Of a stretch of 32,000 bases of DNA, positions 6,379 through 31,475 are shown in pieces (position 1 is the stretch's first letter; each line of letters starts with the position of its first letter). Both the position numbers and the translations under genes were made by a program. The notes beneath the pieces are model-generated. The model did not search any database, had not been told where the DNA came from, and saw only the letters and a program-made list of their open reading frames with translations. This DNA comes from an uncultured Candidatus Cenarchaeum sp. (lineage in GTDB: Archaea; Thermoproteota; Nitrososphaeria; Nitrososphaerales; Nitrosopumilaceae): assembly GCA_958295735.1 (NCBI GenBank), contig OY282369.1, forward strand, positions 2,114,983-2,146,982. Reading direction: 5' to 3'.

Positions 6379-6397
6379 GGTGTGGACTCACGTCCAC
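6379..6397. repeat. IS-end-like sequence GGTGTGGACTCACGTCCAC containing the palindrome GTGGAC-TCAC-GTCCAC
   Basis: It matches the left terminus of the IS4-family element at 20296-20313 (GGTGTAGACTTACGTCCA) at all but 2 positions. The 6+4+6 palindrome spans 6382-6397. Confidence 0.5.
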
Positions 6398-6425
6398 TTG
6401 CCGGCCGCGCCCAAAAGCTGCCACC

Positions 6426-6843: not shown

Positions 6844-6968
6844 ATCGCGCCCGATCCGGGGCCGGGACGGGCCCCGCCCGGGGCCGTGACGGCATCGGGG
6901 GCGGATGCTGCCGCCCGCGCTGCCACGGCGCGCGCGCGGGGCGGCATCGCGCGGGCCGCTGCCGGCGG

Positions 6969-8818
6969 TCAGGCGGCTACCGCCGCCGGGGCCCTCGGCG
7001 GCCAGGTGGCGGGATGCGCGAACATGTCCCATTCCGGGTCGGCGCGGAGGGCCTTCAGCGCGGTCGACGGCCAGATTCCCAGGCGCCCGCGCGTCTGGAA
7101 CACGGTGCACGTTATGGAGAGGCGGCGCATGCCGGCCGCGCTCCTCAGCTGGCGGCGCGACCTCTTTTCCCTGGCCGGCCCCTCGTGTATCGCCTGCTCG
7201 ACGCGGTTGTTGTGGCAGGGCATGCCGGGATGCCTCGGGAACGTGAACATGTGGGGCAGCGCGTTGACGAGGGCGGTGCGCATCGCGTGCCCCCCGCCGT
7301 ACCCTCCCGCGATCTCCAGCACCTGCCTCTCCAGCTCCCGGATGGCGGCCTCGTCCGCCGTGTCGATGCGGGAGATCCTCCGGTACATGGAGCGGAGCCG
7401 CAGGTACAGCAGCAGGTACAGCTCCCGGTTCTCCGCATCCATGGCGCGGATCGCGAAGCTCTCGGCGTGCCGCAGCAGGCGGGTGAGGCAGATCTGCCTC
7501 ACGTCTATCCCGTTGTACCCCGAGTACCAGTCGGTCACCATCGGCTTGCCCTTCACCTCGGGAAAGTACAGGTCCAGCACGGCCGCCGCCCTGCTGCCCA
7601 GGAACCCCACGCGCACCGCATCCCCGCAGCAGACCAGCCACGCGTACCCGCGCTTCCCGCACATTTTGAAGGGGGTCTCGTCGGCCTGTCCGCACCCGTC
7701 GCTGTCCCGGATGTGATCCGCGACGCGCCGGTCTCCTGGCTCCAGCAGGTTGGCGGCGGCCTCGTGGGCGTTGTTGGCGGTGGTCTGCGCGATCCCGCAC
7801 CCGTGCTGCTCCTCCACGAGCTCGGCGACGGCCGCGTACGGCACGGCTTTCGCGATGCAGGCGACCGCGGACCCGAGCAGCCCGGCTCCCATGTGCGTGC
7901 CCGGAATCGACTCCGACTTTGCCATGCTGATCCTGTAGCACCTCGCGCACCAGGCCCGCTCGGCCGAGATGCAGGAGACCCTGATCTTCCCGGCGCCGTC
8001 CTTCTCGACGAGGTTCTTGTTGCAGGGCCGCTCCGTCAGATGCTCGGCCAACCCGCAGTACTCGCACGCGGAAAGGCGGGCGTAGCGCGTCTCCTCCGAC
8101 TTGCGCGAGTGCGACACCCCCTTGTGCCCGATGGGAGGACCCATCTTCTTTCCCGGCTTGCGATCGCTGTCGTACGTGCCGTTCTCCCTGCGGAACTTGG
8201 CCCTGTCGGCGCTGTGCCTTTCCGCATCGGGCTTGTTGTAGCCGTCGCACGAGTTGATCCGCTTCTCGGCCTTTTTCAGCTTCGCGGCCAGCTCGCCGCA
8301 CCCCGCGCAGGCGGCGCCCTTCTCCGCTCGGCCGGCTTGGCGGCCGGGGCGGCCGGGGCGGCCGGCTTGGGGGCGGCCGGCTTGGGGGCGGCCGGCTTGG
8401 GGGCGGCCGGCTTGGGGGCGGCCGGGGCGGCCGGCGTGATGAGTCCGCTGCCGCGCCTGTGGGCGGCCGGGGCGGCCGGCTTGGGGGCAGCGCTCCTCTC
8501 CGCCACGGCCGCATCACGGCCGCCGCTTCCGCCTCGCGCGGCCGCCGCCGCGTTCTCCGCCTTGTTGCCCAGCGCCGCCGCCAACTCGTCCTTGAGGCGA
8601 TCGTTTTCGCCCTGCAGCCTGTCAAGTTCCAGCCTGTTCTCGGCGCAACCGGCGTGCTGCGCCTCCACGGCCTAGAGGCGGTCGATTTCGCTACGCGTTT
8701 CGGCCGACTCCCGCCGCTTGTCCTCTACGTATTCCGCGTGTTTTGCATCCAGGGCCGTCATGCGGCGGGTCACCGCCACCAGCTCCCTCCGCACCAGCAC
8801 CGTTTCAGAGTCGGGCAT
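6969..8818 (-). pseudogene. IS66-family transposase gene, disrupted by an in-frame TAG and a frameshift
   Basis: The body (6969..8144 plus an upstream extension of the same frame) has IS66-type motifs: GPPIGHKG, CxxC pairs, DETPF, TDWYSGYN, RQICLTRLLRH, HNNRVEQAI. It parallels the intact copy at 29422..31152. The coiled-coil N-terminus (MPDSETVLVRRELVAV.., ATG 8818) aligns to MAESGVALLRKELAAA of the intact copy. That N-terminus hits TAG at ~8672-8674 and lies in a different frame from the body; the frame switch falls around 8290-8330. Confidence 0.7.
8356..8415. repeat. 15-bp tandem repeat x4 (GGGCGGCCGGCTTGG) flanked by degenerate 9/15-bp variants
   Basis: Read directly from the sequence. 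It encodes (PKPAA)n in the N-terminal frame of the decayed transposase. Confidence 0.8.
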
Positions 8819-13796: not shown

Positions 13797-14344
13797 GGCA
13801 TTGCATCCGCGCCCGGCGCGGGGCCGCCCCCCGCCGATCCGGGCCCGCGCCCGGCGGGGACGGCGGCCGCCCCCGCGCCCCCTGAACGCCCCGAGGGGGA
13901 CCCGGCCGCCGGCCGCGCCGAGTCGTCCCCCGGCTGCGAGAACCGCAGGGACCACGGCCGCCCGCCTCGGGGCCGCGTGCCGGGAAAAGCGCCGCCCCTG
14001 ATTCCGGCACGCCGGGCATCCGCCCGGCGCGGATCTGCCGCTGGCTTGGCGCAGGCCGCGGAAGATGTTCGTGGACGGCACGTCGGACATGTTCCGCGGC
14101 GGCTAGCCGTTCGCGTTCGCCGGAAGGTGCTTCGCCGCGTTGCCCCGCGCGGACCGGCGCGACTGCCGGATCCCGACGAAGCGCCCGGGGAGGACGGCGG
14201 AGTTTTCGGCCCTGTTCAGGGAGCACTTCGGGCGCCGGATCCCCGACTCCATCTGGGCGTGCGCGAGCGCGGAAAGCCGGATGCCGCGCGCGGCTCGCGG
14301 GCTTCGAGCCTGCCGGGATCCGCGGGCGGGACGAGCCTGAAGGG

Positions 14345-15153
14345 CGTGGACCGGGCCATGGCCGGCAGCAGGAGCGGGAGGAACTTCCGCCCCGCCAAGT
14401 GCGGATAACGGGGGCAATAGACCGGTGCGGAAGGCGGCGGGCGCCGGCGTTCTTCAGGCGGCGGGGCGGGATCGGGCAAGTCGGGTGGGCGTACCTCCCG
14501 CGGCAGGCAGCGCGGCGAGTGCCATGAACTGCGGCGGGGGGACGATCTTTCGGGCGCGCGATTCGGCGGGGCCGGGTTCGCGGGGGCGTGCCGCAGGCGC
14601 GGGGGGGGGGGAGGAAGCGCGCGCGGTCCCGGGCGGGGCGGGGCAGGCCGGTCTCCCGCCCACCGACCCGGCGGCCGCGGCAGGCGCCGGCCCGAACCGG
14701 CGGGGCGCGGCGGCTGGCGAGAGCCGGCGGGTCCCTAGCGCCCGCGGCCGGCGCGGATTGCGGGACGGGGGCGGGGGAGCGGGAGGCGCTCGCCAGGAAA
14801 AACCGGCGGCGGAGATCGGGATGGCCGCGCCGGGCCCGCCCGCGCTCCCTCGGCATGGGGGCCGGCCCGCCGACGGCTCCCCGCGCCGCTCCCCGCGCCG
14901 CTCCCCGCGCCGCTCCCCGCGCCGCTCCCCGCGCCGCTCCCCGCGCCGCTCCCCGCGCCGCTCCCCGCGCCGCTCCGCGGGCCGGGCGGGCGGCCCCGCG
15001 GCCGCTGGGTGCGCGCCGGGCCTTGCGGCGCGCGCCACGATCCGTGACGCGCGGGGCAACGGGGCCCATGCGGGCGCGCAACCCCGCGCCGGGGGGAATC
15101 GTGCGGCCTCGCACAGTCCGGCGCCTGCTTGCGGCGAGCGCCGCTGTCCACGT
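14345..15153. repeat. Hyper-GC noncoding spacer, paralog A of three
   Basis: Collinear by eye with 17220-18264 and 22145-23137. Shared blocks include GAGCGGGAGGAACTTCCGCCCCG, GGATAACGGGGGC.ATAGACCGGTGCG, GGCGCCGGCGTTCTTC and CCGCGCCGGGGGGAATCG.GCGGCCTCGCACAGTCCGGCGC. Confidence 0.85.
14876..14971. repeat. 12-bp microsatellite (GCTCCCCGCGCC) x8, present only in spacer A
   Basis: Read directly. The same position in spacers B and C holds a single copy. Confidence 0.85.
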
Positions 15154-17127
15154 TTATGACGGGCCTACCGCATCCCTGTCGGCTTTGGATATCCTGTTGA
15201 GCAACGTCGCCAGCCTTGTGACGCCTTTGTTTTTTTCAACATAGTCGCCGTACGCATTGCGTGCGCTTTCAATCAGCTGGTCGTAAAACACTATTCGCGC
15301 CCCGAATGCTTTAAGAGCATTTTCGTCTTCGCTGCGTTCTCTCGAATTTTCCCAGTCTTTTGGAAGCCTGCCCAGCACGCAGATTACTTCGACCGGCTTT
15401 TCGCCGCCTGATTTCTCAAGAACTTTAGATGCTGCACTTTTGTACTTTTTGAGCTGCGCAAACAACCCCGTTATGTCCGTGCTCGCTTCCGGGCGCTTCA
15501 ACTCTATTATGACGTGCTTGTTCCCGGTCGTCCTGTACTGGATGTCCAGCCTGGCGCGCTTCTCCTCGTCGGTAAGCCCCGCGATCGCGCCGCCCAGCGC
15601 TTTTTTCATGCCGGATTCCATGGCTTCCGGGGCGGAGGCCCTCTCCCATGAGGGATCCAGGAGCCAGAGGTGATCGAACAGGTGCTTTTGGATGATTTTT
15701 TCCTTCGCGTTCTGATCGCGCAAGTCGCTGAACTTCTCGAGCACCTTCAGGCGGGTTTTGGCGGTCTGGTAGTACGCGCTGGCTTCCAAGTCGTCAATCT
15801 GCGGGAGCAGCTCCGCCAGGACCTCCAGGTTGCTGACGTCGATGTCGTCCAGGCGGTCTAGCGCGTCCCTGAATTTGAGGTTCTCGAACGCCAGCATTCC
15901 GCTCACGAACAGCTGCCTCCTCGCATCGTCGCCGTCCAGCGACAGCGCGTTGATGCGCCCGAAGATCCTCTTCGCCTGGTTCCTGTAGCCTTGGGGCAGG
16001 CCGTCGAACCACTCGCGGATCGCCGGCATTTCCAGCGCCGCCTTGGCGCCCTCCTCGTTCCTTAATTCCGCCCACTTTGCCTCCACGGCCTCGACGTCCC
16101 GCCGGAGTTTTTCCTTCAGCGCCACGTACCTGGGATCGTCCTCTATGATAAGATGCCTGCCGGTCGTCGCGATGTCCGGCATGTCGTCCCTGTCCAGGAA
16201 ATCCGCGTGTATCTCCCCGACCACGTGCCTGTCGCACGCTCCCCCTCCGAGGGAGCCCGGCACGCCTTCCTGGGCCATTTTTCCCCTGATCAGGACGGCG
16301 ATCCTGTTGAAGCTCCCGCCGCCGGCATCGTCCTCCAGCTGGCTCGGCTTTTCCACCGTCCCTATCCAGCCGCCGACGCGCTCCGTGATGCCGCCCGCCT
16401 CGACCTCGGGATCCAGGCGGAACGTCCTGGACGCCGACCCGGGGAACTCGTCGCCGCCGTCCCCGCCGAAGAGCCACGCGTACTGCAGTTTTCCGCGGCA
16501 GTTCGCGTCTTCGGCGGCGATCTGCGTCCCGTCGACCGAGACTTCGAACCCGTGCGCGCCGCCGATGATGCCGAACCTGCGCGCGAGCCCCTTCCTCAGC
16601 GATTTCGGGTAGAACGTCCTCGGCTTGATGTCCGTCAAGGTGATGCGCGTCCCGGCTTCCAGGTCGCCGGCCGCCCCGACGTTCGGGGGGTGGTACGCGG
16701 GGGCCCCGCCGCGCAGCGCGCTTTCGATGTCCTTTGCCCTCATCTCGAACTCGTGGCTCTCGCCGTCCTTGGCGCTGTGCACCGTGACCGTACCGGCTAT
16801 GGAGAACAGCGACAGTTTTCCTATCCCCTTGCGCCCCATCACGGGCCTGCCGCGGCGGGCGGTCTTCGCCTCCCCCATTTCCCGGCGCGCGTACCCGGAG
16901 CGCAGGTACTTCTCGTTGGCGTCGCTCACGGTCATCCCGCTCCCGTCGTCCTGTATGGTGATCGTCCCGCCCGGGCCCGTGCGTATATCGACGCGCCCCG
17001 CATCCGCGTCCCACGCGTTGGCGACGGCCTCGGCGAGGGCCGCGGGGATGCTGCCGTGCAGGCTTATGCCCAGATGCTTGAGCGCGTCGAGGCCCACCCG
17101 CATGGTGTACGCGTGATCGCCCGCCAT
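15154..17127 (-). CDS. GHKL (Bergerat-fold, MORC/MutL-like) ATPase fused to a C-terminal PD-(D/E)xK nuclease-like domain, paralog 1 (657 aa)
   Basis: N-box EAVANAWDAD (ExxxNxxD), G1 box QDDGSGM (DxGxG), G2 box GRKGIGKLS (GxxGxG). The C-terminus has KHLFDHLWLLDPSWE ... LDIQYRTTGNKHVIIELKRPE (D...ExK). Confidence 0.8.
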   Translation of the reverse strand: MAGDHAYTMRVGLDALKHLGISLHGSIPAALAEAVANAWDADAGRVDIRTGPGGTITIQDDGSGMTVSDANEKYLRSGYARREMGEAKTARRGRPVMGRKGIGKLSLFSIAGTVTVHSAKDGESHEFEMRAKDIESALRGGAPAYHPPNVGAAGDLEAGTRITLTDIKPRTFYPKSLRKGLARRFGIIGGAHGFEVSVDGTQIAAEDANCRGKLQYAWLFGGDGGDEFPGSASRTFRLDPEVEAGGITERVGGWIGTVEKPSQLEDDAGGGSFNRIAVLIRGKMAQEGVPGSLGGGACDRHVVGEIHADFLDRDDMPDIATTGRHLIIEDDPRYVALKEKLRRDVEAVEAKWAELRNEEGAKAALEMPAIREWFDGLPQGYRNQAKRIFGRINALSLDGDDARRQLFVSGMLAFENLKFRDALDRLDDIDVSNLEVLAELLPQIDDLEASAYYQTAKTRLKVLEKFSDLRDQNAKEKIIQKHLFDHLWLLDPSWERASAPEAMESGMKKALGGAIAGLTDEEKRARLDIQYRTTGNKHVIIELKRPEASTDITGLFAQLKKYKSAASKVLEKSGGEKPVEVICVLGRLPKDWENSRERSEDENALKAFGARIVFYDQLIESARNAYGDYVEKNKGVTRLATLLNRISKADRDAVGPS

Positions 17128-17219
17128 CGCTCCTCAGATGTCACTATGCTCCTGCCTATAACCCTTCCAAGATCCAGTCACCGCATTCCCTGTCAGCCTC
17201 GCCACGGGGCGGCAGACAG
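17128..17219 (-). pseudogene. Stub of the dcm 3' end (about 90 bp) retained upstream of paralog 1
   Basis: It aligns to the region of the intact dcm encoding PVARLIGNAVPVELGRAIGRSIV (25250-25335). A 2-nt deletion is present, and homology stops at ..GCCTCGCCACGGGG. Confidence 0.8.
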
Positions 17220-18264
17220 GGCCATGGTCGGGGGCGAGAGCGGGAGGAACTTCCGCCCCGTCCGGGGAGGTGGGCGCGGCGTACTCCCCCCCTGCTCGGC
17301 CTCACGTGGCGAGAGCGGGAGGAACTTCCGCCCCGTCCGGGAGGAGTGGATAACGGGGGCGATAGACCGGTGCGAAAGGCGGCTGGCGCCGGCGTTCTTC
17401 GGGCGGCGGGGCGGGATCGAGCCATAGTTGGGCGGGCGGACCGTCCGCGGCAGGCAGTGCGGCGAGTACCCCGGACTGCGGCGGGGGACGATCCTTCGGG
17501 CGCGCGCTTCGACAGATGTTCTGAATCGCTGATATGTCCATGTGCGTAAGGCGGGGGACGATCCTTCGGGCACGCGCTTTGACGGGGACGGGTTCGCGGA
17601 GGCGTGCCGCAGGCGCGGGGGAGAAGCGCGCGCGGTCCGGTCAGGGCCGGGCCGGGCTCCCGCCCGCCGGCCCGGCGGCCGCGGCGGGCGCCGGCCCGAA
17701 CTGGCGGGGCTACCCCCCGATGCGGGGCGGCGGCGGGGCGCGCGGGCCCGCGGCCGGGGCGCCGCGGCCGGGCGGAGCCGGCAGGCCTCGGGCGGTGCCG
17801 AATGCCCGCGGCACGCCCGCCGCCGGCGCGGGGGGCGGAGGGAGGGGGAGAGGCGGGGGCCAGGCGGCGCTCGCCTGGAAAAGCCCCGGCCGCCTGTGCA
17901 CGTGCAAGCACGACGCGGTAGGAGGCGGGGGCCAGGCGGCGCTCGCCTGGAAAAGCCAGCGGCGAAGAACGGCGGGACGGCGCCGGGCCCGCCTGCGCTT
18001 CCACGGCATCGGGGGGCCGGCCCGCCGACAGCTCCCCGGGCCGGGCCCGCGCCGCGCCGCTCCGCGGGCCGGGCGGGCGGATCGCGGGCGGCCCCGCGGC
18101 CGCGGGATGCGCGTCGGGCTTTGCGGCGTGCACCACGATCCGGGGCGCGCGGCAGGCGCGCGGGTGCAACAGGGTCCGTGCGGGCGCGCAACCCCGCGCC
18201 GGGGGGAATCGGGCGGCCTTGTACAATCCGGCGCTTGCAACGCGCGCTGCGGCGTTGTCTCCGT
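17220..18264. repeat. Hyper-GC noncoding spacer, paralog B
   Basis: Collinear with spacers A and C. It carries three copy-specific 70-75-bp additions (see findings). Confidence 0.85.
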
Positions 18265-20241
18265 TTACGACGGGCTTATCGCATCCCTGTCCGTTTTGGA
18301 TATCCTGCTGAGCAACGTAGCCAGCCTTGTAATGCCCTCGTTTTTTTCAACATAGTCGCCGTATGCCTTTTGGGCGTTTTCAATCAACTGGTTATAAAAC
18401 ACTATTCGCGCCCCGATTGCCCCAAGGATGTCGTTGGCTATTCTGCGCTCACTTGATTTTTCCCAGTCTTTTGGAGGCCTGCCCAGCACGCAGATGATTT
18501 CGACTGACTCTTCCTTGCCGAATCCTTCAAGGACTTTGGCTGTTGCATCATAGTATTTTCTAAGCTGAGCAAACAATTCCGTTGCATTCGTGCTCGCTTC
18601 CGGGCGCTTCAACTCTATTATGACGTGCTTGCTTCCGGTGGTTCTGTACTTGATGTCCAGCCTGGCGCGCTTCTCCTCGTCGCTAAGCCCCTCGATTGCA
18701 CCGTCCAGCGCTTTTTTCATGCCGGACTCCATGACCTCCGAGGCGGAGACCCTCTCCCAAGACGGATCCAAGAGCCACAAGTGATCGAACAGGTGCTTTT
18801 GGATGATTTTTTCCTTCGCGTTTTGATCGCGCAAGTCGTTGAATTTCTTGATCACCTCCAGGCGGGTTTTGGTGGTCTGGTAGTACGCGCTGGCTTCCAA
18901 GTCGTCAATCTGCAGGAACAGATCCGCCAAGACCTCCAGGTTGCTGACGTCGATGTCGTCCAGGCGGTCGAGCATGTCCCTGAGTTTGAGGTTTTCGAAC
19001 GCCAGTATTCCGCTCACGAACAGCTGCCTTCTTTCGTCGTCGCCGTCCAGCGCCAGGGCGTTGATGCGCCCGAAGACCCTCTTCGCCGGTTTCCTGTGGC
19101 GCGGGGGCAGGCCGTCGAACCACTCGCGGATCGCCGGTATGTCCAGCGCCACCTTGGCGCCCTCCTCGTTCCTTAATTCCGCCCACTTTGCCCTTACTGT
19201 CTTTACATCCTGCCGGATTTTTTCCTTCAGCGCCCCGTACCTGGGATCGTCCTCGATGATCAGCTGCCTGCTGGTCGTCGCGATGTCCGGCATGTCGTCC
19301 CTGTCCAGGAAATCCGCGTATATCTCCCCGACCACGTACTTGCTGTGCATTCCGCCATCTTCAAAGGATCCCAGCATGTCTTCCTGGGCCATTTTTCCCC
19401 TGATCAGGACGGCGATCCTGTTCAGGCTTCCGCCGCTAGCGTCGTCCTCCAGCTGGCTCGGCTTTTCCACCGTCCCTATCCAGCCGCCGACGCGCTCCGT
19501 GATGCCGTCTACCTCAACCTCTGGATCCAAGCGGAACGTCCTGGACGTCGCCCCGGAGAACTCGCTGCGGCCGTTCTCGCCGAACAGCCACACGTACTGC
19601 AGTTTTTCATGGTAGTTCCTGTCTTCGGCGGTGATGCGCGTCCCGTCAAGCGAGACTTCGAACTGGTGCGCGCCGCCGATGATGCTGAACCTGCGCGCAA
19701 GCCTCTTCCTCAGCGATTTCGGATAGAACGTCCTCGGCTTGATATCCGTCAGGGTGATGCGCGTCCCGGCTTCCAGGTCGCCGGCCGCCCCGACTTTGGA
19801 GGGGTGGTACGCGGGGGCCTTGTCGCGCAGCGCGCTTTCGATGTCCTTTACCCTCATCTCGAACCCGTGGCTCTCGCCGTCCTTGACGCTGTGCACCGTG
19901 ACGGTGTTGGCTATCGAGAACAGCGACAGTTTTCCTATCCCCTTGCGCCCCATCACGGGCCTGCCGTGGCGGGCGGTCCTCGTTTCCCCCCTTTCCCGGC
20001 GCGCGTACCCGACGCACAGGTACTTCTCGTTGGCATCGCTCACGGTCATCCCGCTGCCGTCGTCTTGTATGGTGATCGTCTTGCCCGAGTCCGTGCGTAT
20101 CTCTACGCTCTCTGCATCCGCGTCCCACGCGTTGGCTACTGCTTCGGCGAGGACCGTGGGGATGTTGCTGTACAGGCTTATGCCCAGATGCTTGAGCGCG
20201 TCGAGGCTCACCTGCATGGTGTACGCGTGTTCGTCCGCCAT
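18265..20241 (-). CDS. GHKL ATPase / PD-(D/E)xK nuclease fusion, paralog 2 (658 aa, most diverged, lower GC)
   Basis: Same motifs as paralog 1 (EAVANAWDAD, QDDGSGM, GRKGIGKLS, KHVIIELKRPE). It has many substitutions and one extra residue. Confidence 0.8.
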   Translation of the reverse strand: MADEHAYTMQVSLDALKHLGISLYSNIPTVLAEAVANAWDADAESVEIRTDSGKTITIQDDGSGMTVSDANEKYLCVGYARRERGETRTARHGRPVMGRKGIGKLSLFSIANTVTVHSVKDGESHGFEMRVKDIESALRDKAPAYHPSKVGAAGDLEAGTRITLTDIKPRTFYPKSLRKRLARRFSIIGGAHQFEVSLDGTRITAEDRNYHEKLQYVWLFGENGRSEFSGATSRTFRLDPEVEVDGITERVGGWIGTVEKPSQLEDDASGGSLNRIAVLIRGKMAQEDMLGSFEDGGMHSKYVVGEIYADFLDRDDMPDIATTSRQLIIEDDPRYGALKEKIRQDVKTVRAKWAELRNEEGAKVALDIPAIREWFDGLPPRHRKPAKRVFGRINALALDGDDERRQLFVSGILAFENLKLRDMLDRLDDIDVSNLEVLADLFLQIDDLEASAYYQTTKTRLEVIKKFNDLRDQNAKEKIIQKHLFDHLWLLDPSWERVSASEVMESGMKKALDGAIEGLSDEEKRARLDIKYRTTGSKHVIIELKRPEASTNATELFAQLRKYYDATAKVLEGFGKEESVEIICVLGRPPKDWEKSSERRIANDILGAIGARIVFYNQLIENAQKAYGDYVEKNEGITRLATLLSRISKTDRDAISPS

Positions 20242-20296
20242 TGTGCCTCAAATGTTGCATCGTGCTCCTGCCTATAACCCTTCCAATCTCCACCGG
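20242..20296 (-). pseudogene. dcm 3' stub upstream of paralog 2, proximal part (interrupted by IS)
   Basis: ..CCTATAACCCTTCCAATCTCCACCGG is homologous to the intact dcm and ends at the IS insertion point. Confidence 0.75.
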
Positions 20297-22105
20297 GTGT
20301 AGACTTACGTCCAAACCGAAACCACGCCTAGCGGCAACAATCCGCTCCGCGATCCCACGCCCAGATCACAATGGACGTAAGTCTGATGTTGAAAATGTAC
20401 TCCCGTTTCGTGCCGGGCCGAGCGCCAAAACGGCCGGGATTTGTCGGGCTAACGGATCAGTTCCCGCGGCGCCCCGATCCGCCGGCGCGTTCCGCAGCAA
20501 CGGCGGGCCGGATCGCCGATCTTTCGTCGCCGGGAGCGCGTTCGTTGCACCGCGCGCGCCGGGCGCGCCGTGCAGGGCGGCTTACCAGGACCTGCGCGGC
20601 GCGGCCCGCCCGCGGATCGGCGCGCCGCCGCGATCGGGGAGCGGGACCGGCCCCGCCCGGGGCCGGAACGGCATCGGGCGCGGGTGATGCTGCCGGCCGC
20701 GCCGCTTCGGCGCGCGGCAAGGGTCTAAAACGCGCTAGGTCACGCACTGGAGGTAGTAGCCCCGCTTGCCCATGTCCGTCCTGATGATCTCCAGCGCGAA
20801 CTTGACCATCAGCGTCGCGAACTCGGACAGCGCCCTGCGCTTCTTCGCCGGCCGGCGCCCCGATTCCGCGGCATCCGCATCGGCGGCGTGGTTGGACGCG
20901 TACCACGTGTTGCAGTAGACCATGGCGAAGTACATCATGAACGTCCTGATCGACAGGTTCTTGCTGCTCGTCGTGGGCAGGATCTGCTTGATCGACTTGT
21001 AGGCGTTCTCTATCCTCCAGCGCTGCCTGTACAAGCCGGGGATGTCCCTCTTCATGGTCCTCCCGATCCTGCCCTGCCTGACGTTGGTGGTGAACGTGAG
21101 GTACTTCCACCTCCGCTTGCCCTTGGCCTTCACCATGCGCTTTTCGATGACCAGCCAGAATGTGAACTCCGTCCCGTCGTCCGCCTTCATCGTGTACCGC
21201 GACACCTTATTCCGCTTCCTGCGCTTGTATTCCGCCAGGGCCTTCCTGATTCCCGCCGTCTTCCTGGCGGGCATGAGGAACTTCTCCCCGGCGCCGTCAA
21301 ACGCGGACATCACGGCGACCGTGCAGAACTCGCGATCCGCGAGGAACAGCCTCGGCTTGAGCCCGGCCCGGCGCAGCTCCCCGAACATCTGTTTGACGTA
21401 GTCGGCCACCTTGACCCCGTCGACCATGCGGATGGCCCCCACGTGCGGCATGTGCGCCTTCTCCGCCACGTACGCCGTCATGTACCCGTCGAACCGCGTG
21501 GTGCCGCCCTTGGGCCTGCCGCTCACCGTCCAGCCGCCGCCGTCCTCGCCGGTGAACGGATGCAGGTGCATGTCGAACGCGATCGCCGCGCTCGCGGGTA
21601 TGTGGCCCCTCTTTATCATGGACGCGGCGGTGCGGGCGAGCATGGACTGGCCGCACTCCTCCACCAACTCGTGCGGAATTTTTGCCAGCATGCCCAGCAG
21701 CCACTGCCCCGTCGGGATCCTCTCGTCCTTGTAGAGCTCCTTCATGGCCTTGAGCGCCCTGTTGGCCGACGCCCCCTTCTCGCACATGAACACCAGCGCC
21801 GCGATCAGGGCGTGCGCGTCGTACAGCGCGTTGTGCCTGCCCGACAGGGGGATCTGGAGCGCTACTATGAGGGAGTGCAAGGTGTTAAATGCGCCGCCGG
21901 CGAGCAACTGTTGGCGTTCCGATACGCCACTGTCGTGGTACATAGTGGCGTGTCGGAGCGTCGCCTTTTAACCGCTGCTGTCCGGGGAACCGAACCGCGC
22001 GCGCGGCAACCATCCGGCCGTTTCGGCCGGCCGGGCCCGCGCCAAACCTGCAGGATCGCCCATTACGCATAGCACTAGTACATTTTCAACTTCTGAAGTC
22101 TACAC
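20297..22105. mobile_element. IS4-family insertion sequence (~1.8 kb) inserted into the dcm stub
   Basis: The termini GTGTAGACTT... and ...AAGTCTACAC are 10-bp perfect inverted repeats. They are flanked by direct repeats TCCACCGG (20289-20296 and 22106-22113; 9 bp if a C is shared). The joined flanks reconstitute the dcm sequence GCTCCACCGGCACCGCATTCCC. Confidence 0.85.
20735..21943 (-). CDS. DDE transposase, IS4 family (402 aa)
   Basis: Exact Y-(2)-R-(3)-E-(6)-K signature in YRQRWRIENAYKSIK. Candidate catalytic Asp residues lie in AFDMHLH and FLADREF. Confidence 0.8.
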   Translation of the reverse strand: MYHDSGVSERQQLLAGGAFNTLHSLIVALQIPLSGRHNALYDAHALIAALVFMCEKGASANRALKAMKELYKDERIPTGQWLLGMLAKIPHELVEECGQSMLARTAASMIKRGHIPASAAIAFDMHLHPFTGEDGGGWTVSGRPKGGTTRFDGYMTAYVAEKAHMPHVGAIRMVDGVKVADYVKQMFGELRRAGLKPRLFLADREFCTVAVMSAFDGAGEKFLMPARKTAGIRKALAEYKRRKRNKVSRYTMKADDGTEFTFWLVIEKRMVKAKGKRRWKYLTFTTNVRQGRIGRTMKRDIPGLYRQRWRIENAYKSIKQILPTTSSKNLSIRTFMMYFAMVYCNTWYASNHAADADAAESGRRPAKKRRALSEFATLMVKFALEIIRTDMGKRGYYLQCVT

Positions 22106-22144
22106 TCCACCGGCACCGCATTCCCTGTCGGCCTCGCCACGGGG
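22106..22144 (-). pseudogene. dcm 3' stub upstream of paralog 2, distal part
   Basis: TCCACCGGCACCGCATTCCCTGTCGGCCTCGCCACGGGG corresponds to the PVARL.GNAVPVE coding sequence of dcm. It shares the same end point as the stub at 17219. Confidence 0.75.
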
Positions 22145-23137
22145 CGGCAGACAGGGTTAGTTGGGGGCGGGAGCGGGAGGAGCTTCCGCCCCGCTATGGA
22201 GCGAAGGCCGGCTCCAATGCCAACGAGGAGGTGCGGCGGCGGGAGCGGGAGGAACTTCCGCCCCGTCCGGGAGGAGTGGATAACGGGTGCGATTGACCGG
22301 TGCGAAAGGCGGCTGGCGCCGGCGTTCTTCGGGCAGCGGGGCGGGATCGGGCCAAAGTCGGGCGGGCGGGCCGTCCGCGGCAGGCAGCGCGGCGAGTGCC
22401 CGTGACTGCGGCGGGAAGACGATCCCTCGGGCGCGCGCTTCGGCGGGGCCTGGTTCGCGGAGGCGTGCCGCAGGCGAGGGGGAGAAGCGCGCGTGGTCCG
22501 GTCAGGGCCGGGCCGGGCTCCCGCCCGACGCCCCTGAGGCCGCGGCTGGCGCCGGCCCGAACCGGCGGGGCTGCCCCCCGATGCGGGGCGGCAGCGTGGC
22601 GCGCGGGCCCGCGGCCGGGGCGCTCGGTCGCGACCGACCATTCGACGTCCTCCAAGAAGCGGCAGCGTGGCGCGCGGGCCCGCGGCCGGGGCGCCGCGGC
22701 CGGGCGGAGCCGGCGGGCCTCGGGCGGCGCCGAACGCCCGCGGCACGCCCGCGGCCGGCGCGGGACTGCCCTCCTTTCCAACGACGTGGGCCGGACGTTC
22801 CCGAACGCCCGCGGCACGCCCGCGGCCGGCGCGAGGGGCAGGGGGAGGGGGCGGGGGCCGGGCGGCGCTCGCCCGGAAAAGCCGGCGGCGAAAAACGGCG
22901 GGGCGGCGCCGGGCCCGCCCGCGCTCCCGCAGCATCGGGGGGCCGGCCCGCCGACGGCTCCCCGGGGCGGCCCGCGCCGCGCCGCTCCGCCCCGAGGGCC
23001 GGGCGGGCGGATCGCGGGCGGCCCCGCGGCCGCGAGGTGCGCGCCGGGCCCGTGCGGGCGCGCAACCCCGCGCCGGGGGGAATCGGGCGGCCTCGCACAG
23101 TCCGGCGCCTGCTTGCGGCGAGCGCCGCTGTCCACGT
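22145..23137. repeat. Hyper-GC noncoding spacer, paralog C
   Basis: Collinear with spacers A and B. It carries three copy-specific 71-72-bp additions. Confidence 0.85.
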
Positions 23138-25111
23138 TTATGGCGGGCCTGCCGCATCCCTGTCGGCTTTGGATATCCTGTTGAGCAACGTCGCCAGCCT
23201 TGTGACGCCTTTGTTTTTTTCAACATAGTCGCCGTACGCATTGCGTGCGCTTTCAATCAGCTGGTCGTAAAACACTATTCGCGCCCCGATCGCGTCAAGA
23301 ACATTCTGGATTTCTTCGCGCCTTTTCGAATTTTCCCAGTCTTTTGGAGGCCTGCCCAGCACGCAGATTACTTCGACCGGTTCTTCCTTGCCGAATCTTT
23401 CGAGGATCTCGGATGCTTCATCTCTGTATTCGTTGAGCTGCGCAAACAACCCCGTTATGTCCGTGCTCGCTTCCGGGCGCTTCAACTCTATTATGACGTG
23501 CTTGTTCCCGGTCGTCCTGTACTGGATGTCCAGCCTGGCGCGCTTCTCCTCGTCGGTAAGCCCCTCGATCGCGCCGCCCAGCGCTTTTTTCATGCCGGAT
23601 TCCATGGCTTCCGGGGCGGAGGCCCTCTCCCAGGAGGGATCCAGGAGCCACAGGTGATCGAACAGGTGCTTTTGGATGATTTTTTCCTTCGCGTTCTGAT
23701 CGCGCAAGTCGATGAACTTCTCGAGCACCTTCAGGCGGGTTTTGGCGGTCTGGTAGTACGCGCTGGCTTCCAAGTCGTCGATCTGCGGGAGCAGCTCCGC
23801 CAGGACCTCCAGGTTGCTGACGTCGATGTCGTCCAGGCGGTCTAGCGCGTCCCTGAGTTTGAGGTTCTCGAACGCCAGCATTCCGCTCACGAACAGCTGC
23901 CTCCTCGCATCGTCGCCGTCCAGCGCCAGGGCGTTGATGCGCCCGAAGATCCTCTCCGCCGGTTTCCTGTGGCGCGGGGGCAGGCCGTCGAACCACTCGC
24001 GGATCGCCGGCATTTCCAGCGCCGCCCCGGCGCCTTCCTCGTTCCTTAATTCCGCCCACTTTGCCCTTACGGTCTTGACGTCCCGCCGGAGTTTTTCCTT
24101 CAGCGCCCCGTACCTGGGATCGTCCTCTATGATAAGATGCCTGCCGGTCGTCGCGATGTCCGGCATGTCGTCCCTGTCCAGGAAATCCGCGTATATCTCC
24201 CCGACCACGTGCCTGTCGCACGCTCCCCCTCCGAGGGAGCCCGGCACGCCTTCCTGGGCCATTTTCCCCCTGATCAGGACGGCGATCCTGTTGAAGCTCC
24301 CGCCGCCGGCATCGTCCTCCAGCTGGCTCGGCTTTTCCACGGTCCCTATCCAGCCGCCGACGCGCTCCGTGATGCCGCCCGCCTCGACCTCGGGATCCAG
24401 GCGGAACGTCCTGGACGCCGACCCGGGGAACTCGCCGCGGCCGTCCCCGCCGAAGAGCCACGCGTACTGCAGTTTTCCGCGGCAGTTCGCGTCTTCGGCG
24501 GCGATCTGCGTCCCGTCGACCGAGACTTCGAACCCGTGCGCGCCGCCGATGATGCCGAACCTGCGCGCGAGCCTCTCCCTCAGCGATTCCGGACGGAGCG
24601 CCCGCGGCCTGACGTCCGTCAAGGTGATGCGCGTCCCGGCTTCCAGGTCGCCGGCCGCCCCGACGTTCGGGGGGTGGTACGCGGGGGCCCCGCCGCGCAG
24701 CGCGCTTTCGATGTCCTTTGCCCTCATCTCGAACCCGTGGCTCTCGCCGTCCTTGGCGCTGTGCACCGTGACCGTACCGGCTATGGAGAACAGCGACAGT
24801 TTTCCTATCCCCTTGCGCCCCATCACGGGCCTGCCGCGGCGGGCGGTCCTCGCCTCCCCCATTTCCCGGCGCGCGTACCCGGAGCGCAGGTACTTCTCGT
24901 TGGCGTCGCTTATGGTCATCCCGCTCCCGTCGTCCTGTATGGTGATCGTCCCGCCCGGGCCCGTGCGTATATCGACGCGCCCCGCATCCGCGTCCCACGC
25001 GTTGGCGACGGCCTCGGCGAGGGCCGCGGGGATGCTGCCGTGCAGGCCCGCGCCCAGATGCCTGAGCGCGTCGAGGCCCACCCGCATGGTGTACGCGTGA
25101 TCGCCCGCCAT
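23138..25111 (-). CDS. GHKL ATPase / PD-(D/E)xK nuclease fusion, paralog 3 (657 aa), directly downstream of the intact dcm
   Basis: Same motifs as the other paralogs. I counted about 50 substitutions and no indels versus paralog 1. The start codon lies 16 nt after the dcm stop. Confidence 0.85.
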   Translation of the reverse strand: MAGDHAYTMRVGLDALRHLGAGLHGSIPAALAEAVANAWDADAGRVDIRTGPGGTITIQDDGSGMTISDANEKYLRSGYARREMGEARTARRGRPVMGRKGIGKLSLFSIAGTVTVHSAKDGESHGFEMRAKDIESALRGGAPAYHPPNVGAAGDLEAGTRITLTDVRPRALRPESLRERLARRFGIIGGAHGFEVSVDGTQIAAEDANCRGKLQYAWLFGGDGRGEFPGSASRTFRLDPEVEAGGITERVGGWIGTVEKPSQLEDDAGGGSFNRIAVLIRGKMAQEGVPGSLGGGACDRHVVGEIYADFLDRDDMPDIATTGRHLIIEDDPRYGALKEKLRRDVKTVRAKWAELRNEEGAGAALEMPAIREWFDGLPPRHRKPAERIFGRINALALDGDDARRQLFVSGMLAFENLKLRDALDRLDDIDVSNLEVLAELLPQIDDLEASAYYQTAKTRLKVLEKFIDLRDQNAKEKIIQKHLFDHLWLLDPSWERASAPEAMESGMKKALGGAIEGLTDEEKRARLDIQYRTTGNKHVIIELKRPEASTDITGLFAQLNEYRDEASEILERFGKEEPVEVICVLGRPPKDWENSKRREEIQNVLDAIGARIVFYDQLIESARNAYGDYVEKNKGVTRLATLLNRISKADRDAAGPP

Positions 25112-25127: not shown

Positions 25128-26270
25128 CTATGCCCCTGCCCGCGACCCGCTCGCGGGGAACAGCGTGCGCTGGCCCGCCGGCAGCTCCGGATGCCGCACC
25201 GTGCTCCCGTCTCCGGCAGCGGCGGCTGCCTGACCGCCAGCAGCAGCCGGCAGCTCCAGATGCCGCACTATGCTCCTGCCTATGGCCCTCCCGAGCTCCA
25301 CCGGCACCGCATTCCCTATCAGCCTCGCCACGGGGTGGATGCTCACGCGCTCGTAGTCCGCCACGAACGAGTAGTTCTTCGGGAATGTCTGCAGCAGGGC
25401 CCCCTCGCGCAGGGATATGGCGCGGTGCTGCTCGGGATGCCCGAACCTGCCGGTCCCGAACCCGTAGAACTGCGTGGTGATGGTGGGCCCAGGCTTGTGC
25501 CATTCCATGCGGCCGTAGATGCTGCCGAACGTCTTGCCGGCATCCCTCCTGTGGCACGGGGTCCTGAGCCCCTCGTCCCAGTCGCGCCACGACCCGCCGG
25601 GCCTGGATTTGCGGATCCTCTCCAAGTTCTTGGCGGACAGGGCGCTCGCCTTGTGCAGGCGGTCCGTGCCGGACGACTCGCCGGCCCTGATCGGCTCCGT
25701 GTGGCGTATCGCATCCCAGACCGTCGCGCGCCTGCCGCGCTTCCCGCCCTGCAACCTTATGGGGCCCCGCCTCGACGCGAGGAGGACGAGCCGCCTCCTC
25801 GTCTGCGGGATGCCGTACTTGGCGCAGTTGACCGTCCTGTAGTCGTAACCGTAGCCCGCCCGCCTGAGCGCGCCGACGAACTTTTCGAACACCGGGTACT
25901 TCGCGAGCCCGGGGACGTTTTCCATGGCCACCACGTCCGGGAGCACCCGCTCCGCGAGGTCCCCGAACCTGGACAGCAGGTCCCGCTTGTTCCCGCCACG
26001 GCCGGAGGGGTTGTAGCACGAGAACGGCTGGCACGGGGCGCACCCCGCGAGGATCCTGGGGGAGCCCGGCGCGAACAGGGACTCCACGAACTCGGGCGTC
26101 AGGTCCTTGGCGTCCATTTCGACGAACCGCGCCTTGACGTTGGACTCGAACGGGTGCTTGCAGGCGGGATCGGAGTCTATCCCGGCGGCCACGTCGATCC
26201 CCGCCGACTTGAGCCCGTACGACAGCCCCCCCGCCCCGCAGAACAGATCCACCGCGCAGGGCCTGGCCAT
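25128..26270 (-). CDS. dcm: DNA (cytosine-5)-methyltransferase
   Basis: Motif I DLFCGAGG, motif IV PCQPFS, motif VI ENV, motif VIII QTRRR, motif X GNAVP. The start at MARPC (26270) is supported by CTTTAAT 25 nt upstream. The track extension to 26705 is low complexity. Confidence 0.9.
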   Translation of the reverse strand: MARPCAVDLFCGAGGLSYGLKSAGIDVAAGIDSDPACKHPFESNVKARFVEMDAKDLTPEFVESLFAPGSPRILAGCAPCQPFSCYNPSGRGGNKRDLLSRFGDLAERVLPDVVAMENVPGLAKYPVFEKFVGALRRAGYGYDYRTVNCAKYGIPQTRRRLVLLASRRGPIRLQGGKRGRRATVWDAIRHTEPIRAGESSGTDRLHKASALSAKNLERIRKSRPGGSWRDWDEGLRTPCHRRDAGKTFGSIYGRMEWHKPGPTITTQFYGFGTGRFGHPEQHRAISLREGALLQTFPKNYSFVADYERVSIHPVARLIGNAVPVELGRAIGRSIVRHLELPAAAGGQAAAAAGDGSTVRHPELPAGQRTLFPASGSRAGA

Positions 26271-26295
26271 CCCGGCGGCGGGCCGGCCCGCCCGC

Positions 26296-26302
26296 ATTAA
26301 AG
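26296..26302 (-). promoter_or_regulatory. TATA box (CTTTAAT) of dcm
   Basis: A/T island 25 nt upstream of ATG 26270 in otherwise GC-rich DNA. Confidence 0.5.
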
Positions 26303-26707
26303 GTGTAATGCTTCGGGCGGCATGGGGCCGCGCGCCCGCCGGCCGCAGGCGCGAAAACGCCCCCGCTGATCCGGATTCGCGCCTCGGGAGGAGGGAGGGG
26401 GGGGGGGCCGCCGGCCCCGCGCTTCGGGCATCCGCGGGGCGGCGCCCCCCGCGCCGAGCCCGCGCCGCCCGGCCGGGCGGCGGGATCCCCCCGATCGGCG
26501 GGCCCGGATCGGGGCGCTTCCGGCGGCCGCCGCGGCGCGCCGGGCGCTGCCGCCGCGCGGCGGGCAGGCGGCGGCGATCCCGGGAGGGCGCCCCCCCGCG
26601 CCCGGCCGGGCGCGGCGAGCCGGCATCGGCCCGCGCCGGGCGCCGGATCAGCGGCGCGGCGCGCCGGGCGATCCCGCCGCCCCGCGCGCCCGCCCCGGCC
26701 GGCAAGA

Positions 26708-29183: not shown

Positions 29184-29421
29184 GGCGCCCCGCGGCCCGG
29201 CCCCGGCGCCGCCGCTTCCGCGGTCCCTTGCCGGGGCGGGCTCCCGGCCGGCGGCGGCCCCCTCCCCGCGGGCGCGGGGCCCCGCGCCGGCCCCGGTACA
29301 CACTTACCTCCCCCCCCCCTCCCGCCGCGACTTGGCCGCCCGGGCGGGCCCGCGCGCCGCGCAAGCTTAGGCTGGCCTAAGGGTCGATTTGTATAATTGT
29401 GGCGAGTTTGGGCCTGCCGGC

Positions 29422-31152
29422 ATGGCGGAATCCGGGGTGGCGCTGCTGCGCAAGGAACTGGCGGCCGCGTTGGAAAAGATCGCCGGGCTGGAAGCCGAGG
29501 CCGCGGAGCGGGCGGCCGAGATCGCGATGCTGAAGGCCAAGTCCACGGAGCAGGCGCTGCTGCGCAAGGAACTTGCGGCCTCGCTCGAAAAGATCGCCGG
29601 GCTGGAAGCCGAGGCCGCGGAGCGGGCGGCCGAGATCGCGATGCTGAAGGCCAAGTCCACGGAGCAGGCGCTGCTGCGCAAGGAACTGGCGGCCGCGTTG
29701 GAAAAGATCGCCGGGCTGGAAGCCGAGAACTCCGGGCTGAAGGCCAAGGCCGCCGAGCAGGCGGTCAGGCTTGCCGTGTGCGACGGCCCGAACGCGCCCT
29801 CGTCGTCCCTCACCACGTACGGCCCCCGGCGGAACGCCTGGCGCAAGGAGCGGGGCTACAAGGGGAGCGACGGGGCCGGATCCGACGGCAAGCCCGCTCC
29901 GGACGGCGGCGCCCCGCGCAAGATGGGCCCGCCCCAAGGGCACAAGGGCGTCTCGCACTGCAACAAGCCCGAGTTCACCATGAAGTGCGGGATCCTGACG
30001 TGCCCCGTGTGCTGCGGCCCCCTGGAGAAGTTCGACAGGTGGCGAAAGCTGGTCAACGACTTCGATCAGTTCTGGCGCGTGGTCACCGCGATGATCGAGG
30101 TGGAGACGGGCTGGTGCGGCAAGTGCGAGAAGTACTACGAGGCCCAGGCGCCGTTTCCGAAGGGCACCTCGTGCGGCCCGAGGGCGCTCGGCCTCATAAT
30201 GGCGCTGTTCGAGATGGGCTGCACGGACGCGAGGATCGCCGGCTTTATCGAGTCCACGTTCTACTTCCGCATCTCGGAGGCGGCCGTGGCGAAGGCCAGG
30301 AGGGCCATGGCGGGCGCGTCGAAGAAGCAGCTGGAGGAGATCAAGTGGGCGTTCAGCGAGAGCATGTTCGTGCACATGGACGAGACCGGGTTCAAGATCG
30401 GCGTGCTGGGCAAGACCGGCTACGTCTGGGTGGCCGTCGTGGGCAACGCCGTGTGGGTGCACTTCGCGCCCACCCGGGGGGCGGCGGTCCTGAGGGAGCA
30501 CTTCGGCTGGCTGTCCCGCAGGGCGGTGGTGGCCGACGGGCTGCCGGCGTACCGCGCGTGGTTCCAGCATCTGCAGAGATGCTGCAGGCACCTGCTCGCC
30601 AAGGGCGAGGCCGTCGCCGTGGACGGCGACCCGGGGGACGAGGCGAGGCACGACTGGATGCAGGGGTACTACCACAAGATACACGGCATCAAGACGCTGG
30701 CGCCGTTCACCGTGACGTACCTGGCCAAGGAGTTCCACGACGCCGTGTCGGCGTACCCCGACGGCAAGCTGAAGACGCACCTCGCCAACGCCGAGCCGCA
30801 CGTGCTCACGTTCATGGGATTCCGCGGCATGCCGCCCCACAACAACCCCGCCGAGCTCGCCATACGCGACCTCATAGTGACGCAGCGCAACGCGCACCAC
30901 AAGATCTCCACGCCGGAGGGGCGCAAGACGTTCTCCGAGCTGGTCACGATCGGGGGCACCGCCCGCATGAACGGCATGTTCCCGGGCAGGGCCTTCACCG
31001 AGATCGCCCGCAATCGCGACTGGAAAATGTTCGACCCCGGCCCGTGGGCCGGGCCCGACTGGTGCGTCTTCGATGACCCCGCATCCGGGCTGGTGCGCCC
31101 GCCCGGCTCCGCGGCGGGGCGGGCGCCGGCTCCGGCAGCGGCGTCCGCCTGA
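29422..31152 (+). CDS. IS66-family transposase with an N-terminal coiled coil
   Basis: Motifs GPPQGHKG, CPVCCG/CGKCEK zinc-finger-like pairs, DETGF, ADGLPAYR, QRCCRHLL, HNNPAELAIR. ATG 29422 lies 23 nt downstream of TATAATT (29392-29398). Confidence 0.85.
   Translation: MAESGVALLRKELAAALEKIAGLEAEAAERAAEIAMLKAKSTEQALLRKELAASLEKIAGLEAEAAERAAEIAMLKAKSTEQALLRKELAAALEKIAGLEAENSGLKAKAAEQAVRLAVCDGPNAPSSSLTTYGPRRNAWRKERGYKGSDGAGSDGKPAPDGGAPRKMGPPQGHKGVSHCNKPEFTMKCGILTCPVCCGPLEKFDRWRKLVNDFDQFWRVVTAMIEVETGWCGKCEKYYEAQAPFPKGTSCGPRALGLIMALFEMGCTDARIAGFIESTFYFRISEAAVAKARRAMAGASKKQLEEIKWAFSESMFVHMDETGFKIGVLGKTGYVWVAVVGNAVWVHFAPTRGAAVLREHFGWLSRRAVVADGLPAYRAWFQHLQRCCRHLLAKGEAVAVDGDPGDEARHDWMQGYYHKIHGIKTLAPFTVTYLAKEFHDAVSAYPDGKLKTHLANAEPHVLTFMGFRGMPPHNNPAELAIRDLIVTQRNAHHKISTPEGRKTFSELVTIGGTARMNGMFPGRAFTEIARNRDWKMFDPGPWAGPDWCVFDDPASGLVRPPGSAAGRAPAPAAASA
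29440..29727 (+). repeat. 114-bp (38-codon) in-frame tandem repeat, about 2.5 copies, inside the transposase coiled coil
   Basis: CGCTGCTGCG recurs at 29441, 29555 and 29669. The encoded unit is ALLRKELAAALEKIAGLEAEAAERAAEIAMLKAKSTEQ. Confidence 0.85.
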
Positions 31153-31475
31153 CCGGCCCCAGCGGATCTGCCGGGCGCGCGCGGGCGGCGTCAGCCCGCG
31201 TCAGGCATCGGGACGGAGCGCCGTACCGGGGCGGCCGCGCGCCGAAAATGCCCCGAACCCTGCCGCGATCGCGCGGCGCGCGCCGATCGGGGCAGGCCGG
31301 GCGCGCGGGGGGCGGCGCCCGCCCGCCGAAGGATCCCCGCTCCGGCCGCGATCGCGCGGCGCGCGCCGATCGGGGCAGCCCGGGCGCGCGGGGGGCGCCG
31401 GGAGGGGGGGGGGAGGTAAGTGTGTACCGGCCCCGCATGGCAAACGCTAAATGTGGCGCGGGCCGGGCCCGCCCC

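Follow-up and report, generated by a model that had tools for sequence, protein, structure and literature searches.

A 32,000-nucleotide stretch of archaeal DNA (contig OY282369.1; hereafter the window) holds six units in which a short sequence, R, is directly repeated on both sides of an unrelated insert, U. We conclude that these R-U-R units are very probably the products of off-target Cas1-Cas2 spacer integration by the organism's own type I-G Cas4/Cas1-Cas2, the adaptation module of a CRISPR system. As such, they are a natural instance of a known reaction and not a new kind of system. We observe the anatomy of the units, precise empty sites at which they are lacking, lengths that match those of the resident arrays, and the genes of the integrase. 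An earlier note on this DNA had described the six units and suggested ectopic integration by Cas1-Cas2, a suggestion that our analysis supports.

Six repeat-flanked inserts in paralogous inter-gene spacers

The six units lie in two of three paralogous inter-gene spacers, three in B and three in C (Table 1). We compared the window with sister contigs of one HiFi metagenome assembly (ENA ERZ19489113), recovered by exact-protein look-ups and designated below by L numbers. Two of them, L001 and L002, share 99% identity with the window in the flanks and 85-91% in the HATPase region, and L003 is of the same strain as the window. All six units are present at the positions reported in the earlier note, with R copies that are 94-100% identical and U segments of 35-44 nt when the boundaries of that note are used. 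Its division into R and U holds for five of the units. The sixth, C1, had been split into an R of 28 nt (27/28 identical) and a U of 44 nt, and is better resolved as 36+36 bp. With its five mismatches between the R copies, C1 is an older event. The lengths of R and U seem negatively correlated, with a constant sum, because decay or chance identity at the R/U border shifts bases from one to the other and leaves the period unchanged.

Every site has its own R, and the six R sequences are all different, as had been noted before. The U segments, described earlier as unrelated to the other copies, indeed have no homologue in the other paralogues, with the sole exception of the U of C1. A unit homologous to C1 occurs at the same site in L001 (18562-18669, with R copies of 36 and 35 nt) and in L002, and its U is also homologous (94% over 34 nt). 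The C1 event therefore predates the split of these strains. B1 has the same left boundary as C1 and an unrelated U; its R is present as a single copy in paralogues A and L1a. Two peculiarities of composition pointed out earlier were confirmed by measurement: the A/T-rich U of B2 (17514-17549, 42% G+C) and the perfect 14-bp palindrome with which the U of C2 begins (TCGGTCGCGACCGA, 22624-22637).

Table 1. R-U-R units, their empty counterparts and neighbouring features. Positions are those of the window unless a sister contig is named.
Feature	Position	Strand	Description
Unit B1	R 17233-17266, U 17267-17307, R 17308-17341		period 75; R 34 nt, 34/34 identical; U 41 nt, 76% G+C
Unit B2	R 17480-17513, U 17514-17549, R 17550-17583		period 70; R 34 nt, 32/34 identical; U 36 nt, 42% G+C
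Unit B3	R 17850-17885, U 17886-17921, R 17922-17957		period 72; R 36/36 identical; U 36 nt
Unit C1 (refined)	R 22166-22201, U 22202-22237, R 22238-22273		period 72; R 31/36 identical; U 36 nt
Unit C2	R 22588-22623, U 22624-22658, R 22659-22694		period 71; R 36/36 identical; U 35 nt
Unit C3	R 22730-22762, U 22763-22800, R 22801-22833		period 71; R 33/33 identical; U 38 nt
Empty target site	3432-3466		single 35-bp R; holds the stop codons of convergent NUDIX (+) and ThiC (-)
R-U-R unit	L001 15408		period 71; R 37
R-U-R unit	L001 15883		period 67; R 38
R-U-R unit	L001 18439		period 72; R 36
R-U-R unit homologous to C1	L001 18562		period 72; R 36/35
Two-unit addition at C2 site	L001 19000-19156		132 bp added; two other U segments
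Independent unit near C3 site	L002 19038-19139		period 72; R 30; different U
Three-copy unit	L002 19382/19453/19523 (to 19555)		periods 71, 70; R 33
R-U-R unit	L004 16951		period 76
R-U-R unit	L005 14142		period 72
R-U-R unit	L005 14936		period 73
Three-repeat R-U-R unit	L005 17484/17556 (17484-17662)		periods 70/69
R-U-R unit	L006 8305-8410		period 72
R-U-R unit	L007 3831		period 72
R-U-R unit	L007 16925		period 71
R-U-R unit	L007 17191		period 71
Inter-gene spacer A	14200-15153		non-coding tail downstream of HATPase A; zero R-U-R units; empty-site reference
HATPase_c_3 / REase_II-like paralogue A	15154-17127	-	Pfam and PADLOC
Inter-gene spacer B	17128-18264		non-coding, ~75% G+C, downstream of HATPase B; three units
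HATPase_c_3 / REase_II-like paralogue B	18265-20241	-	87% DNA identity to paralogue A
IS4-like element	20373-22105 (approx.)	-	transposase 20735-21943; separates paralogue B from inter-gene spacer C
Inter-gene spacer C	22106-23137		non-coding, ~78% G+C, downstream of HATPase C; three units
HATPase_c_3 / REase_II-like paralogue C	23138-25111	-	exact protein listed; longest contig 3,166,131 bp

Empty sites and the direction of change

We reconstructed the empty site of each unit by deleting one R plus U, and aligned the result to the paralogous spacers. The reconstructed sites align contiguously with these spacers, which bears out the boundaries, the alignment of the spacers being the check proposed in the earlier note. 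The site of C2 matches spacer B over 116/116 columns with 0 gaps. That of B2 aligns with A, C, L1a, L1b and L2b with at most two gaps, that of B3 aligns over positions 1-116 with C and over 1-108 with L1a and L1b, and that of C3 aligns with B, L1a and L1b. B2 is confined to spacer B, and its site is empty in the five other related spacers. In our sequence comparison, insertion is more parsimonious than deletion, since only one of the six related spacers has B2, and the same is true of B3 and of the U of C2. Different U segments are also found at one site in different copies. The earlier concern that the R-U-R form might be ancestral is not borne out: the U segments do not represent sequence that the other copies have lost.

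A further site lies away from the spacers, in housekeeping DNA. The convergent genes NUDIX and ThiC overlap by 26 bp in the window (3438-3463), and both stop codons fall inside a single 35-bp R. At the same junction, L001 and L002 carry R35-U35-R35 with a period of 70. The flanks are 99.5% identical to the window, and the site is thus a presence/absence polymorphism. There, the unit separates the two genes, and each keeps its own end. Because both stops are inside R, so that the duplication supplies separate gene ends, the insertion costs nothing. A similar convergent junction is found at L007 3831-3939, between AsnC and a convergent gene.

Units beyond the window share one length

The earlier note had proposed a genome-wide search for further units. 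Related contigs from this metagenome show the R-U-R architecture about 15 more times, those in L004 to L007 lying in unrelated regions. There are about 25 units in about 133 kb, or roughly one per 5 kb, in a sample biased towards defence islands. In the 20 units that were measured, the period ranges from 67 to 76 bp (mean 71.35, standard deviation 1.85), most R segments measure 33-38 nt, and the U segments have a median length of 36 nt. We also scanned the six related spacers for 30-nt windows matching at 24/30 positions or more at a fixed offset. The repeat offsets are 70 (2 clusters), 71 (4) and 72 (9), with almost none elsewhere between 35 and 159. Of about 28 isolated direct-repeat pairs in 133 kb of non-array sequence, about 24 are spaced by 67-76 bp. 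The clustering of added lengths at 70-75 bp, first noticed inside the window, therefore holds beyond it, with a peak at 70-72.

Some sites have been used more than once. The two-unit addition in L001 has the same left boundary as C2, as B1 has with C1, and the L002 unit near C3 falls within a few bases of it, its left boundary being displaced by 5 nt and its right boundary by 3 nt. This points either to local hot spots or to renewed integration at an R already present, after which recombination between the R copies would remove the older units. Array-like growth to three repeats is seen once each in L001, L002 and L005. Relaxing the identity threshold to find older, decayed units in the related spacers added essentially none, and the small number of detectable decayed units fits a turnover of units. 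In the complex non-coding repeat region at L005 13800-15100, a 36-nt segment (CGCGCCTTTTCCCGGCCGCGAGGCGAAGCATGCCGC) is present several times, alongside a 28-nt minisatellite. Two units in this region have periods of 72-73 bp and divide atypically into R and U (46/26 and 25/48); they may be nested or secondary duplications of ectopic units.

A type I-G adaptation module with the same geometry

There are no cas genes in the window. Its IS4-like transposase is identically encoded at five other places in the same assembly, and one of these, L005 on a 499-kb contig (s176), lies beside cas genes and a CRISPR array. This locus encodes a 553-amino-acid Cas4g/Cas1g fusion (715 bits to NCBIfam NF049935, cut-off 560) with an adjacent Cas2, and its array has at least 100 identical 36-nt repeats (CTTTCCGCAACTCTCATGTTGCGGCCCCATTGAAGG). 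The spacers of the array measure 34 (11 spacers), 35 (38), 36 (32), 37 (16) or 38 nt (2), giving periods of 70-74 nt. The syntenic locus in a second strain, L009, has the same system, with at least 133 copies of the same repeat and a leader that separates cas2 from the array; its spacers measure 34-39 nt and its periods 70-75 nt. The 231 spacers sampled from the leader ends of the two arrays (99 and 132) are 34-39 nt long, the periods being 70-75 nt with a mode of 71-72. The two samples have zero spacers in common, which points to active adaptation. The geometry of the R-U-R units (R about 36, U about 36, period 71.35±1.85) matches that of the arrays within about 1 bp in every dimension.

The earlier note had reasoned that the enzyme would be encoded elsewhere or be something new. 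The first of these alternatives stood: Cas4g/Cas1g, Cas2 and arrays are found outside the window, in the same organism or population, and a new enzyme is not needed. In both strains, an IS4-like element lies immediately upstream of cas4/1. The array spacers of L005 and L009 have little A (10-12%) at their third and sixth positions, counted from the leader-proximal end, which hints at a codon-phase or protospacer-adjacent motif (PAM)-linked bias in protospacer choice.

Do the module and the window belong to the same organism? Four lines of evidence say that they do. The window and the array-bearing contig have two insertion sequence (IS) elements in common, one of 1.7 kb at 99.2-100% and one of 2.1 kb at 99.3% DNA identity. 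Their tetranucleotide frequencies are correlated (r=0.96) and their G+C contents match. The array-bearing contig itself carries R-U-R units (L005 17484-17662 and L006 8305-8410). Finally, in the cluster metadata of NCBI and ENA, a Cas4/Cas1 that is 96% identical to that of L005, HATPase C, and variants of ribosomal protein S3Ae and geranylgeranyl reductase (GGR) each have a longest listed contig of 3,166,131 bp.

How the units may have arisen

Staggered strand attack by Cas1-Cas2, followed by gap repair, is established chemistry. We infer that the same reaction would be catalysed by Cas4/1-Cas2 at the R-U-R sites. The complex would carry a prespacer of about 36 bp, whose two 3'-OH ends would attack opposite strands of a non-CRISPR target about 36 bp apart, which is the span normally covered across the 36-nt repeat. 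Gap filling would then duplicate the 33-38 bp between the points of attack, leaving target copy, insert and target copy. The resulting units would persist where they are harmless, that is, in long non-coding G+C-rich tracts and at convergent gene junctions, where each gene gets its own 3' end. Some sites would be attacked again or extended to three repeats, and recombination between the two R copies could remove a unit. Gain and loss together would produce the observed copy-specific and strain-specific pattern.

The units differ from a canonical array in that they have two and rarely three repeats, each site has its own R, and no leader-like flank was seen; outside the arrays, no copy of the canonical repeat CTTTCCGCAACTCTCATGTTGCGGCCCCATTGAAGG with 10 mismatches or fewer was found. 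The units are probably inert scars, and not mini-arrays that work, since their R sequences bear no relation to the canonical repeat. The mean G+C of the U segments (0.664) lies between that of the flanks (0.757, p=0.012) and that of the array spacers (0.603, p=0.011) and is nearer to the latter, which would fit inserts drawn from an unselected mix of self and foreign fragments. No U segment matches an array spacer. A preference of R for hairpins or cruciforms was considered and is not supported. R stood out against neighbouring 36-mers (p=5e-4) and not against dinucleotide shuffles (p=0.19) or random spacer 36-mers (p=0.26), the first signal being due to local G+C content only.

Several observations weigh against off-target integration by this module. 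The putative link of the CRISPR locus to the genome of the window rests on cluster metadata and shared IS elements. Within about 10 kb of cas4/1-cas2, effector cas genes were seen in neither strain (L005 1-9306; L009 10001-21662). No protospacer donor for 22 U segments was found in about 190 kb of related loci, a phage collection and IMG/VR scans, a search that covered about 6% of the genome, left out viruses from the same sample and, for IMG/VR, used three low-G+C U cores as queries; the matches in the phage collection were at chance level only (E 0.09-0.3). Donor matches are the only prediction of the earlier note that found no counterpart in the sequence searched. Compared with the canonical repeat in both orientations and within a register of ±6 nt, R scores a mean of 13.9/36 against a background of 14.7 (P=0.99). 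It shows no likeness to the leader junction either, and we found no motif at the unit boundaries, in the targets or at the ends of U. This is unlike Pyrococcus furiosus, where off-target sites share features of the repeat (PMC6698737), whereas R here is not above background. Four of the 20 unit periods (67, 69, 75 and 76) lie outside the main 70-74 range of the arrays, in which a single one of the 231 periods is 75, and the division into R and U is odd in a few units (40/30, 46/26).

Other explanations

The earlier note took filler-DNA repair as the main alternative. During break repair or replication, a nascent strand would switch template, copy about 36 nt elsewhere and re-anneal about 36 nt upstream. 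In principle, this can place a duplication around unrelated sequence. The genome abounds in tandem repeats that are prone to slippage and differ between strains, and the search for donors yielded none that would prove a spacer-like origin of the inserts. Yet template switching has no ruler, while the offsets peak at 70-72 only. It does not account for the match of both R and U lengths to the resident array, no U was copied from nearby sequence on either strand, and sites were re-used, in two cases with the same left boundary. We therefore regard it as highly improbable. There is scarcely any chance that the units are instead ancestral, with the empty copies produced by deletion between direct repeats and with no active insertion. 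Such a history would leave the origin of the units unaccounted for, and it needs up to five independent precise deletions per site for B2, B3 and the U of C2, each present in 1/6 spacers. It also has to cope with different U segments at one site in different copies, and with R copies that are usually 100% identical when the paralogues have diverged by 7-15%. What speaks for deletion is that recombination between 33-38-bp repeats removes exactly one R plus U, which at any one locus (e.g., 3432-3466) looks the same as an empty site, and that the few old, decayed units fit ongoing loss. Deletion probably contributes to the loss of units.

A different integrase or a small mobile element, such as a casposase-like solo Cas1 or a transposase with a long target-site duplication, is very unlikely to have made the units, even if R is unlike the CRISPR repeat, the region is full of IS elements and the sequence inspected is part of the genome. 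The U segments share no sequence, terminal inverted repeats or common ends, and so are not copies of an element, and the length match to the type I-G array would have to be a coincidence. The duplications of IS elements and casposons span about 2-15 bp, against 33-38 bp here, and we know of no transposon that makes duplications of 33-38 bp. The remaining alternative concerns function: the units could be mini-CRISPR arrays or solitary repeat units, processed into guide RNAs for defence or gene regulation. Several of them lie downstream of an island resembling restriction-modification systems, some have grown to three repeats, and off-target integration has reportedly been put forward as one source of isolated arrays (Shmakov et al. 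2020, as cited in PMC13142298). A working array is nonetheless extremely unlikely, because R differs at each site and is nowhere like the 36-nt repeat that the processing nuclease would recognise, no leader-like sequence or conserved promoter was identified, and the units would be lost as readily as they are gained, with U not conserved between paralogues.

Relation to known off-target integration

Off-target Cas1-Cas2 integration has been observed in vivo in Escherichia coli, where it creates neo-CRISPR loci (Nivala, Shipman and Church 2018, as cited in PMC7054753, PMC11788318, PMC9456107 and 10.1101/148544). From what these citing works relay, the archaeal units resemble the type I-E neo-CRISPR loci in several ways: spacer-sized DNA at non-CRISPR sites, a target duplication of about one repeat length, and units that can seed arrays. 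In the same accounts, the E. coli events were seen when Cas1-Cas2 was over-expressed and oligonucleotides were supplied, and IHF-like sites made them more frequent. The archaeal events, in contrast, are natural and either fixed or polymorphic in a wild population; they would involve a type I-G fusion, and they have a 36-bp duplication and no target motif that we could recognise. The duplication of the E. coli type I-E system is 28 bp.

The Cas1-Cas2 of P. furiosus performs off-target full-site integration into non-CRISPR DNA in vitro, with a spacing set by the complex (PMC6698737). By analogy, the units may represent the same archaeal full-site integration into non-CRISPR DNA. They are also like the isolated or orphan mini-arrays (Shmakov et al.), which are reportedly two-repeat, one-spacer units far from cas genes and attributed to stray integration. 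Unlike those mini-arrays, the units here number about 25 in about 133 kb, and each has its own repeat sequence. The survey reportedly stressed integration into sequences resembling the cognate repeat and single loci per genome. The Cas4/1-Cas2 of the Geobacter sulfurreducens type I-U (now I-G) system has the same Cas4/1 fusion (NCBIfam Cas4g/Cas1g) and inserts mostly 36-bp spacers, the predominant length also here (PMC6547450). The Geobacter work deals with canonical leader-directed integration and selection of a TTN PAM, and ectopic integration is not its subject (PMC6547450).

Significance of a natural record

The evidence for off-target integration comes mainly from over-expressed proteins of E. 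coli and from work in vitro, and its natural frequency has been called unclear in one analysis (10.1101/148544). The window and its sister contigs would provide a natural record: about 25 dated and partly polymorphic events, with precise empty sites, in an uncultivated archaeon of high G+C content. On this record, the integrase would keep its spacing of about 36 bp even in sequence that does not resemble the repeat, stray insertions would survive in non-coding tracts and between convergent genes, and sites once attacked could be attacked again and begin to resemble arrays. These results bear on the origin of new CRISPR arrays, on the cost in mutations of an adaptation module, and on the reading of the isolated mini-arrays reported by repeat finders. 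They also make the rate, target choice and consequences of stray integration, as well as the birth of proto-arrays, measurable in a wild population.

More tentatively, and with some doubt on our part, stray spacer integration might be frequent enough to shape the genome of this archaeon instead of being a rare accident. If this were true, the density of about one unit per 5 kb could translate into tens to hundreds of units across the 3.17-Mb chromosome. The process would add non-coding DNA, remodel the 3' ends of convergent genes and spawn arrays of up to three repeats. Its driver might be an adaptation module uncoupled from interference, given the lack of effectors within about 10 kb and the IS element beside cas4/1 in both strains. 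The population would then offer a natural system in which CRISPR 'autoimmune integration' could be studied for its rate, its choice of targets and its cost to fitness, and in which the birth of arrays could be followed.

Genomic setting of the units

The DNA of the window is about 70% G+C overall, in a genome of about 72%. Its archaeal markers are the ribosomal protein S3Ae and GGR, to which the sister contig L003 adds a TATA-binding protein (TBP). The proteins of the window are basic (by isoelectric point), which indicates that the organism is not a halophile. The three HATPase paralogues are tandem genes on the minus strand, each encoding a GHKL-ATPase protein of 657-658 amino acids that is matched by the Pfam HATPase_c_3 and PADLOC 'REase_II' models. 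They adjoin a C5 cytosine methylase (25128-26705). The genes of this HATPase/methylase island have 60-65% G+C against about 72% in the genome, and the paralogues and methylase are thus probably an acquired restriction-modification island. In exact-protein look-ups, HATPase A and HATPase B had no match, nor had P0011 or either of two start variants of the IS66 transposase. A search of GTDB representative genomes with this transposase also found nothing, and the CRISPR repeat had no match in GTDB genomes or JGI metagenomes.

Downstream of each HATPase paralogue lies about 1 kb of non-coding sequence with 75-79% G+C. In inter-gene spacers A, B and C, G+C is about 0.78-0.80 at every codon position in all frames, and this absence of codon-position bias indicates that they are non-coding. 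We therefore rejected a coding origin, and the long open reading frames in these spacers have no Pfam matches. A search for known RNA families across the window found none.

Besides the IS4-like element, the window has an IS66-family element (29296-31427). It is precisely absent from the same-strain contig L003, and is therefore a recent insertion. Tandem repeats of 114 bp (29439-29780) lie in the region encoding the N-terminus of its transposase. A 53-bp direct repeat at 31262-31378, whose period is 83 bp, was considered as a seventh unit and rejected, being a part of the right end of IS66 and present in every copy of the IS.

Several tandem repeats of other kinds occur in the window. Inter-gene spacer A has a 12-nt repeat (GCCGCTCCCCGC, about nine copies) at 14849-14992, which is confined to it. 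A 15-nt tandem repeat (GGGGCGGCCGGCTTG) upstream of S3Ae (8346-8488) is much longer in the sister strains (L001 9284-9560). Finally, a 29-nt minisatellite (CAGGCCGGCGCCGCGGGGCCCGTCCCCGC) has about 22 copies in the window (6339-6976) and about 3-4 in L001 (5753-5851); its unit is not a multiple of 3 and it is strongly variable between strains.

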